Source: a virus (taxonomy: Duplodnaviria; Heunggongvirae; Uroviricota; Caudoviricetes). Taken from it: a stretch of 5,620 nt of DNA. A program made the translations under genes and the position numbers. The stretch lies in IMG/VR virus record IMGVR_UViG_2700989510_000036; one strand, given 5' to 3'. Below the pieces are notes generated by a model. It did not search any database and was not told the DNA's origin. It worked only from the letters and a program-made list of their open reading frames with translations. Below are positions 1,959 to 3,236 of the stretch, piece after piece (the stretch's first letter is position 1; the number at the start of each line of letters is the position of its first letter).

Positions 1959-3236
1959 ATGGCAGTAAAGATTTCAGGTGTACTGAAAGACGGCACAGGA
2001 AAACCGGTACAGAACTGCACAATCCAGCTGAAAGCAAAACGTAACAGTACCACTGTGGTGGTGAACACGCTGGCCTCAGAAAATCCGGATGAAGCCGGGC
2101 GTTACAGCATGGACGTTGAGTACGGTCAGTACAGCGTTATTCTGTTGGTGGAGGGATTCCCGCCGTCACATGCTGGGACCATCACCGTGTATGAAGATTC
2201 TCAACCGGGTACGCTGAATGATTTTCTCGGTGCCATGACGGAGGATGATGCCCGTCCGGAGGCTCTGCGTCGTTTTGAACAGATGGTGGAAGAAGCAGCG
2301 CGTCACGCAGAGGAGGCGAAGAAGAATGCCGGAGAAGCAGAGACGTCCGCGAGGAATGCCGGCATATCAGCCAGTAAGGCGGAAGCGAGCGCCGCAAATG
2401 CTGATACTTCAGCAGAAGATGCATCGGAGTCAGCCCGGCAGGCGGCAGAAAGTGCAGCCGCTGCAAAGCAGTCAGAGGAGGCGTCCTCGTCCTCGGCCTC
2501 TGAGGCCGCTCAAAAAGCCAGTGAGTCATTACAAAGTGCAGCAGATGCTGAGTTGTCAAAAAAGATGGCAGAAAGTGCAGCCGGTAATGCAGCCAGGGAT
2601 GCAACGACCGCAACAGAAAAAGCCCGGGAGTCAGCAGAAAGCGCACAGTCAGCGGAACAAAGCAGGATAGCGGCGGAAGAAGCCGTAAACCGAATCCCGA
2701 CCGTGGTGGGGCCTCCCGGGCCAAAGGGGGAACCGGGTCCCGCGGGTCCTCAGGGGCCGAAGGGAGATAAAGGAGAGCGTGGCGATACCGGCCCGGCAGG
2801 CCCGCAGGGGCCGAAAGGCGACAGGGGAGAGCGGGGAGAGACCGGTCTGACGGGAGATGCAGGTCCACAGGGTCCAAAGGGAGATACCGGTACGGCAGGC
2901 CCGGCAGGCCCGGCAGGCCCACAGGGACCGAAAGGAGAAACAGGTGTGGCTGGCCCGGTAGGGGCAACCGGACCTCAGGGGCCGAAGGGCGACCCGGGAG
3001 AGACGCAAATACGGTTCCGTCTGGGGTCGGGAAACATTATTGAGACAAACAGCAATGGCTGGTTCCCGGATACAGATGGCGCACTCATCACCGGACTGAC
3101 CTTTCTTGACCCCAAAGATGCCACACGGGTTCAGGGGTTTTTTCAGCATTTGCAGGTCAGATTTGGCGACGGGCCGTGGCAGGATGTCAAGGGGATGGAT
3201 GAAGTGGGCAGTGATACAGGCAGAACAGGAGAATGA
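1959..3236 (+). CDS. stf: Side tail fibre protein (Stf-like), 425 aa, with collagen-like Gly-X-Y repeat domain
   Basis: ATG at 1959 is preferred over the GTG at 1953 because the N-terminus [26 protein letters not shown]...GQYSVIL...[24 protein letters not shown] matches my recollection of the lambda Stf N-terminus. An Ala/Ser/Glu-rich low-complexity stalk follows (about 2235-2708), then 32 consecutive G-X-Y triplets (2709-3002) and a short 78-aa C-terminal domain. Stop TGA at 3234-3236. Confidence 0.85.
2709..3002 (+). repeat. Collagen-like Gly-X-Y triplet repeat region inside stf (32 triplets; about 5 imperfect copies of a GPQGPKG-initiated unit)
   Basis: Read directly from the translation: [98 protein letters not shown]. 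At DNA level GPQGPKG recurs at about 2748, 2808, 2868, 2925 and 2973 with synonymous variation. The DNA is very GC-rich, which creates long spurious ORFs on the opposite strand. Confidence 0.9.

Follow-up and report, generated by a model that had tools for sequence, protein, structure and literature searches.

The 5,620-nucleotide stretch of Caudoviricetes DNA analysed here (IMG/VR record IMGVR_UViG_2700989510_000036; hereafter the window) carries, at positions 1959–3236, a side tail fibre gene (stf) whose 425-residue product is very probably a complete collagen-like side tail fibre of the EPclA type, which belongs to lambdoid prophages of enterohaemorrhagic Escherichia coli (EHEC), and not a broken lambda Stf. 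The type itself is not new: its family has been described and characterised biochemically, is annotated routinely by the Prokaryotic Genome Annotation Pipeline (PGAP), and has in this fibre an ordinary member. A preliminary description of the same DNA had left the choice between a distinct compact fibre type with a novel tip and a lambda-type fibre that had lost its distal part and tfa when effector cargo was acquired. The compact type was correct, whereas its novelty was not, since the EPclA architecture was characterised biochemically in 2012 by Ghosh et al. (PMC3368898). As the homologues show, a phage group already characterised has, in essence, this as its standard, full-length fibre, an outcome which that description had itself named as the one that would overturn it.

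Domain organisation of the fibre

The stf reading frame runs from the ATG at 1959 to the TGA at 3234–3236, on the plus strand as do all features below for which no strand is named, and was present as first described, including the C-terminal sequence quoted at the time. The product matches tail-fibre families of PHROGs with an E-value of 1e-137. It contains the elements that define EPclA, i.e., an N-terminal PF08400 domain, an Ala/Ser-rich segment (PCoil) of ~116 residues, a single unbroken (Gly-X-Y)n tract and a C-terminal PF06820 domain. With Pfam E-values that span 1e-16 to 1e-69, and with 33 consecutive Gly-X-Y triplets, this architecture cannot arise by chance.

The first domain (PfN, residues 1–133; 1959–2357) is the virion-attachment, or collar, domain and matches PF08400 with an E-value of 6.1e-69. 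Its core, residues 1–94, is near-identical to the solved collar domain of lambda Stf (PDB 9e7m, ‘Tail fiber protein’; E 8e-53). Around the tail tip in the cryo-electron microscopy structure of Ur-lambda, 12 copies of Stf residues 1–94 form a collar that bears four trimeric fibres (PMC12617516). The resemblance to lambda Stf, originally put at about 95 residues, thus holds for the core and was drawn too short, as the similarity to lambda-type Stf reaches to about residue 110 at 90–98% identity and the PF08400 match covers residues 1–133.

The next segment is an Ala/Ser/Glu-rich heptad region of 117 residues (PCoil, residues 134–250; 2358–2708), delimited by composition and heptad register. The stalk of this composition reported earlier is borne out by the 47 alanines, 24 glutamates and 23 serines of residues 96–247, in which an A-x-x-A/S-x-x-S heptad is visible. 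The segment is taken to be a trimeric coiled coil, by analogy with the 116-residue PCoil of EPclA: the lengths match, and the PCoil of EPclA has been demonstrated to be an alpha-helical trimer (PMC3368898).

The collagen-like tract (Col, residues 251–349; 2709–3005; PF01391) is made up of 33 Gly-X-Y triplets in one unbroken run, and not of the 32 counted initially. Across related loci the tract comprises 20–38 triplets, which gives EPclA fibres of 386–440 residues, the modal form having 37 triplets and 437 residues. The 33-triplet, 425-residue form occurs only in the window among 85 loci (80 from IMG/VR, the window itself and annotated phage loci; the same set serves for the comparison of ORF89 below). 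The window differs by 36 nt from its best genome matches, consistent with the 437-residue fibre annotated there.

The C-terminal knob (PfC, 76 residues, 350–425; 3006–3233) had been regarded as a novel domain. It is matched by PF06820 (‘Phage_fiber_C’, E 5.8e-34) over residues 351–414, with the full 64-position profile covered. By analogy with the orthologue discussed below, PfC would be a self-trimerising module, and it is presumed to be the receptor-binding tip. Among the copies compared, the knob is a polymorphic mosaic (PGN/PAS, N/H, D/G, D/A, R/Q, F/L/M and Q/R) in which many combinations occur; the allele of the window (RLGSGN...KGMDEV) is rare, being found in 2 of 79 copies. The ratio of non-synonymous to synonymous polymorphism (pN/pS) of the fibre PfC is 0.24 and, like the other pN/pS values given here, is a rough average over non-independent pairs of closely related alleles.

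A Pfam scan of the fibre revealed neither a gp37-like distal domain or Phage_fiber_2 repeats (PF03406) nor a C-terminal Peptidase_S74 self-cleaving chaperone domain. AlphaFold2 monomers of the knob and of ORF89, the 89-residue product of the open reading frame (ORF) that follows stf, are both all-beta and of low confidence (pLDDT, the predicted local distance difference test score, 55 and 52, respectively); the all-beta character agrees with published circular dichroism data. The authors of the phi24B study likewise report no confident model (10.64898/2026.04.10.717836). A profile search of PfC and ORF89 against PDB sequences returned nothing significant, the best match being an unrelated kinase with an E-value of 0.046.

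The behaviour expected of such a fibre can be read from ECs2717, a 437-residue orthologue. Expressed by itself in laboratory E. coli, ECs2717 is a soluble trimeric dumbbell, at most ~62 nm long when fully extended, with a true collagen triple helix (melting temperature, Tm, 42 °C) and an alpha-helical coiled coil (Tm ~50–52 °C) (PMC3368898). Isolated PfC is trimeric in size-exclusion chromatography with multi-angle laser light scattering (24 kDa measured versus 7.2 kDa for the monomer), and the thermal denaturation of a Col-PfC fragment is rapidly reversible, from which the authors concluded that PfC re-nucleates the triple helix (PMC3368898). In agreement with the preliminary description, no Tfa-like protein follows the fibre of the window: ORF89 has no match to PF02413 in Pfam, matches only ‘tail fiber protein’ families in PHROGs and matches nothing in NCBIfam. 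The lack of Tfa would be accounted for by a knob that serves as its own trimerisation module.

Cassette boundaries and effector cargo

The fibre gene is followed by ORF89 (3238–3507) and by the hairpin of an intrinsic terminator (3519–3549; fold ΔG –21 kcal/mol), which has a stem of 14 bp, lies between an A-run and a T-run and ends the fibre module. Almost every downstream sequence variant at the related loci retains this terminator 3′ of ORF89. In blastn comparisons, homology to lambda h434 imm21, 2B8 and phi24B stops in every case at 3574–3577, ~70 nt past ORF89, and the divergence beyond it sets the right-hand limit of the conserved cassette. Homology to phi24B is confined to 2781–3577. Its left limit, 2781, lies inside the collagen tract, so that the distal collagen, PfC, ORF89 and the terminator together form a cassette that moves between phage morphotypes.

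The pair of stf and ORF89 is found in working phages. It stands after J and lom in lambda h434 imm21, where NleB-, NleC- and NleH-like genes form the cargo, and it is present in phage 2B8 and in phi330, a long-tailed phage encoding Shiga toxin (Stx) 2a that plaques on K-12 and requires OmpC. Sp5 cannot do without its EPclB fibre, whose tip is the same and which immuno-electron microscopy placed at the tail (PMC5155283), and the equivalent protein of phi24B accounts for six lateral fibres in a cryo-electron microscopy reconstruction (10.64898/2026.04.10.717836). Homologues of ORF89 occur in 296 phage records, and ORF89 with its terminator in 698 of 5426 complete E. coli genomes (13%), at a median of 10 copies each; examples are O157:H7, O111, O145 and O127:H6. 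All named homologues in the first protein search came from E. coli, E. albertii or Citrobacter rodentium. The four serotypes and the latter two species are attaching/effacing pathogens, and the cassette of ORF89 and terminator seems to track this group.

Beyond the cassette, the first ORFs of 71 loci sort into 19 unrelated clusters, among them NleG (25 loci), NleC-type M85 protease (7), pentapeptide-repeat protein (6), OspG/NleH-type kinase (4) and NleB (4), the others including insertion sequence elements and phage genes. In the window the cargo consists of three NleG-family effector genes (3620–4195, 4268–4897 and 4979–5620); that an effector island lies here had been noticed earlier. PF06416 matches the first two, and the third, which lay outside the Pfam scan, was assigned from its own sequence and from the PGAP name common to all three. 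The G+C content of the three genes (32–44%, compared with 51–71% for the fibre module) fits a foreign origin of this tandem cargo. The distal part of the fibre module also occurs in podophages that have no effector cargo at this position.

Since the same block of fibre, ORF89 and terminator, with the same boundary, precedes 19 different contexts and is found in plaque-forming phages, the effector genes were added after an intact module and did not replace a lost distal fibre. They are morons, inserted just beyond a constant and terminated fibre module.

In three loci a C-terminal fragment of Tfa lies beyond the cargo: in 2B8 (L003 8622–8861; 79 residues, lambda type), in L036 (7368–7598) and in L020 (5421–5576). 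In addition, 2B8 has a second, partial copy of ORF89 at the cargo junction (L003 6757–6926), which is followed by the NleG leader sequence that the window also has. Nested insertions of cargo and the overwriting of an stf–tfa pair seem to have left the partial copy and the Tfa remnants as scars. No Tfa remnant was found in the window.

These fragments bear on the alternative that the fibre is a degenerate, non-functional stub, all that insertion of the effector island would have left of a lambda-type stf–tfa pair, after loss of the distal fibre half and of tfa. Effector cargo does lie directly downstream of the fibre module, and the remnants in 2B8, L036 and L020 imply that an older, lambda-type stf–tfa was overwritten in some lineages. 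The overwriting module, however, is a complete alternative: it has a folded tip, a partner ORF and a terminator of its own, its boundary is constant whatever the cargo, and its recombinant orthologue folds as a stable trimer. As plaque-forming phages carry this module, and podophages without effectors at that site carry its distal part, the stub explanation is largely refuted, and we regard it as highly improbable.

ORF89, a paralogue of the fibre tip

The 89-residue ORF, first taken to be unrelated to the fibre, is by its sequence a conserved paralogue of the fibre tip. A leader of 27 residues precedes a free-standing PF06820 domain (residues 28–89; E 1.1e-36; 125.4 bits versus a curated cut-off of 25 bits), which BLASTP aligns with fibre residues 352–413 at 35% identity (E 6e-11); the protein also matches phrog_576 (E 4e-60). 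The ORF89/PfC family is very narrow, as an exhaustive search of 1.84 billion cluster representatives with a hidden Markov model yielded just 82 matches, many of them fragments.

ORF89 is intact in 84 of the 85 copies. It starts exactly 1 nt past the fibre stop codon (TGAcATG) in 83, the exceptions being the broken copy and one at a contig edge. A Shine-Dalgarno sequence for ORF89, AGGAGA, lies within the last stf codons (3227–3232), and this sequence and the TGAcATG junction are sufficiently explained by termination–reinitiation, by which ORF89 is translationally coupled to stf. A promoter scan of 1850–3700 detected zero sigma-70-like sites and so gave no sign of independent ORF89 expression in lysogens. 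By the Nei–Gojobori method, pN/pS is 0.11 for ORF89 overall, 0.059 for its PfC-like part and 0.32 for the leader. ORF89 is under strong purifying selection, and its domain is almost invariant across copies, unlike the fibre's own knob.

Two further readings of this region were rejected. A programmed +1 frameshift or readthrough at GAA-TGA-C, which would fuse Stf to ORF89, fails because GAA in the P-site cannot re-pair in the +1 frame; at the Sp5 homologue, Mondal et al. (2016) found no frameshift signal (PMC5155283). The leader of ORF89, MNILKKLMQRLCGC, was considered as a lipoprotein signal, for which it is too short and not hydrophobic, and several alleles have Tyr or Arg in place of its Cys14. 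Tryptic peptides of ORF89 include LGPADILESDENGIIPEQDR, VITQVVILDADK and QIQCVVRPLQILR.

Fibres that carry other tips on the same N-terminal domain, in phage 21 and in an Stx2k phage, are followed by ORFs unrelated to ORF89, which indicates that ORF89 goes specifically with PfC-tipped fibres. The same two phages break the general rule that a small downstream ORF is a fibre-tip paralogue, and this rule was rejected. The side tail fibre of phage 21 combines the shared N-terminal domain with an unrelated 686-residue body; next to it is an acidic ORF of 92 residues (L004 6558–6836), which has no Pfam match, overlaps the fibre gene stop-to-start and may encode a different fibre partner.

Recombined and repeated forms of the tip domain were observed in three proteins. 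At the start of locus L086 (positions 1–291; GCA_038404665.1, contig JAYDZQ010000147; allele P0061), a collagen tract of ~13 triplets is fused in frame to the PfC-like domain of ORF89; the junction is a 14 nt microhomology, and the rest of the collagen, the fibre knob and the ORF89 leader are deleted. This fusion stands at the very start of its contig, with the 5′ part of the gene outside it. P0121 is a chimera of ORF89 and PfC. The fusion, the chimera and the partial copy in 2B8 give some support to recombination at ORF89. P0142 (565 residues), a collagen-containing fibre-like protein unlike the fibres of E. coli, has four tandem repeats (...GILRVRQADGTWKEIPAIKG), each of which matches the C-terminal half of PF06820. 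The PfC motif thus exists elsewhere as a repeat module, and a stacked arrangement is conceivable.

Our preferred guess is that ORF89 is an expressed accessory subunit, with a PfC-like trimer of its own, which joins the fibre tip or aids fibre assembly. As a structural subunit of the tip, its trimer would be stacked on the PfC knob in a ‘split’ tandem tip, a distal adhesin or cap that would matter on O-antigen hosts and not on K-12. PfC is a trimerisation module, and the four tandem repeats of P0142 suggest that such domains can be arrayed along a fibre; moreover, ORF89 moves with the distal fibre as one cassette across morphotypes and exceeds the fibre knob in conservation. However, ECs2717 made without ORF89 already has its terminal knob by electron microscopy (PMC3368898), an Sp5 deletion mutant of the ORF89 homologue still infects, and the contact between ORF89 and the knob is putative. 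A structural role remains doubtful, and still it ranks ahead of the others. Somewhat less probable is a dedicated, non-essential assembly helper, an analogue of Tfa absent from the virion, which would template or protect PfC monomers by mimicry. The position of ORF89 is that of tfa, and in OM418627 it is annotated as ‘tail fiber assembly chaperone’; its strict coupling, the strong purifying selection on it and its restriction to PfC-tipped fibres would suit such a partner. Against this, recombinant EPclA and isolated PfC form trimers without any co-expressed partner, ORF89 matches neither PF02413 nor any chaperone family, and in Sp5 the fibre itself is essential whereas ORF68, the homologue of ORF89, is listed as non-essential.

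Least favoured, by roughly this order of ranking, is the proposal of Mondal et al. (2016), made for Sp5 ORF68, of a sequence reservoir for fibre variation (PMC5155283), in which ORF89 would be silent, supply alternative tips by recombination and have no function as a free protein; we consider it unlikely. The L086 allele P0061, the P0121 chimera and the second, partial ORF89 retained at the cargo junction of 2B8 speak for it, although the L086 fusion stands at a contig start with the rest of its gene outside. On the other hand, the start codon, the Shine-Dalgarno sequence, the 1-nt spacing and the 27-residue leader are all conserved, the low pN/pS of the PfC-like part points to selection on the translated protein, and a near-invariant domain offers one alternative tip and no repertoire.

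Several points weigh against the reading of stf as a receptor-binding fibre with ORF89 as its accessory subunit. The preprint on phi24B (2026) poses the function of the fibres as an open question and cites work in which the related fibres of 2B8 do not recognise BamA (10.64898/2026.04.10.717836), and the need of phi330 for OmpC may reflect J or Stf. The homologue ORF68 is among the non-essential late genes of Sp5 (PMC5155283), and no report of ORF89 in a virion proteome was found in the literature covered, which did not include the phi24B protein table; the latter point also counts against a structural subunit of the tip. The AlphaFold2 monomers of both PfC and ORF89 are of low confidence, the averaging behind the pN/pS values is rough, and the prophage of the window is known from its genes, not from particles.

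Prophage setting, proposed assembly and related fibres

The window is the right-hand end of the late operon of a lambdoid prophage. The 3′ end of J, the central tail fibre gene, occupies 1–1224 (PF09327 and PF12421); its frame is open from base 1, with zero stops in codons 1–40, and gpJ of O157:H7 strain 611 aligns with 1–1224. It is followed by lom, encoding an Ail/Lom outer-membrane protein (1295–1894; PF06316, E 2.4e-117), and, between lom and stf, by a terminator-like hairpin with a T-run detected in a terminator scan (1921–1942; fold ΔG –23.3 kcal/mol). The nearest matches in complete genomes are O157:H7 and O111 prophages, at 98% across the entire window. The prophage of O157:H7 strain 611 adjoins ompN and uspF, and on the uspF side it ends with the three nleG genes. 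The prophage of this strain also carries sodC, for a Cu/Zn superoxide dismutase (L087 3066–3593), on the opposite strand between a tail assembly gene and J, upstream of the part that corresponds to the window; with sodC, the tail operon has a further piece of inserted cargo within it. On the minus strand of the window, ORFs of 261 and 249 residues (2182–2967 and 2649–3398) lie opposite the coiled-coil and collagen regions and are most likely artefacts of repetitive, GC-rich coding sequence; phi24B has an equivalent on the antisense strand, with the annotation of a hypothetical protein (vb_24B_37c).

We propose that three Stf chains would assemble into a dumbbell of roughly 55–60 nm. The N-terminal beta-sandwich (residues 1–94) would provide a collar that clips to the tail in the manner of Ur-lambda. 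A trimeric coiled coil would be formed by the Ala/Ser heptad segment and a flexible collagen shaft by the 33 Gly-X-Y triplets, with a length that varies between copies by in-frame gain and loss of triplets. The 76-residue PfC knob would self-trimerise and re-nucleate the triple helix, which would make a chaperone of the lambda/T4 Tfa type unnecessary; presumably it is also this knob that first, and reversibly, touches a receptor on the cell surface. ORF89 is coupled to stf in translation, and the late-operon terminator closes the unit. The distal collagen, PfC, ORF89 and the terminator together act as a portable cassette, common to long- and short-tailed Stx-type phages, with type III effector morons beyond it. 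A more far-reaching version, which we offer tentatively and do not expect to hold in full, is that ORF89 is an expressed trimer of the PfC fold that docks as a split, two-tier tip or periodically replaces the knob by recombination, and that the cassette is both a portable adsorption module of the siphophages and podophages of attaching/effacing pathogens and a fixed recombination anchor for the exchange of type III effectors.

The finding itself matters little, as the family is a described one and the missing tfa is explained by a self-trimerising knob. Fibres of this kind are very abundant, with a median of ~10 copies per genome in genomes of the EHEC and enteropathogenic E. coli type, and the receptor and role of the fibre, as well as the function of ORF89, bear on the spread of Stx phages and effector-carrying phages between strains. 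The role of ORF89, a strictly conserved protein under purifying selection, remains a point of interest alongside the receptor of the fibre.

Among known systems, there is a likeness to Bacillus BclA and to heads of the C1q type, in which a C-terminal globular trimer caps a collagen helix; PfC, judging from its orthologue, would also re-nucleate the helix. BclA matches only the collagen part of the fibre, and PfC, of just ~64–76 residues, resembles neither C1q/TNF-type heads nor any solved structure in sequence. Lambda Stf shares a near-identical collar (residues 1–94), an Ala/Ser-rich proximal coiled coil and the same locus after J and lom. It is, however, much longer (~770 residues), binds OmpC through a distal domain like that of T4 gp37 and depends on Tfa for assembly, whereas the distal part of the window fibre consists of collagen and PfC, matches neither PF03406 nor PF02413 and, by its orthologue, would end in a self-trimerising knob. 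EPclB (933W L0121, Sp5 ORF67/ECs1228 and phi24B gp61) shares the distal collagen, PfC, ORF89 and the terminator, at ~93% DNA identity over 2781–3577, including the same ORF89 partner (ORF68 in Sp5); it differs in its length of 645 residues, in another N-terminal adaptor that binds the podophage tail adaptor, in having two collagen segments and in a Phage_fiber_2 repeat. The closest relative is EPclA itself (ECs2717, Sakai prophage Sp14), which has the same order of PfN, a PCoil of ~116 residues, one unbroken Col and PfC, occupies the same genomic place after J and lom, and occurs in variants of 386–440 residues that differ only in triplet number. From this family the copy in the window is set apart by its 33 triplets (425 residues), compared with the modal 37 (437 residues), and by a rare PfC allele, and it does not differ in kind.

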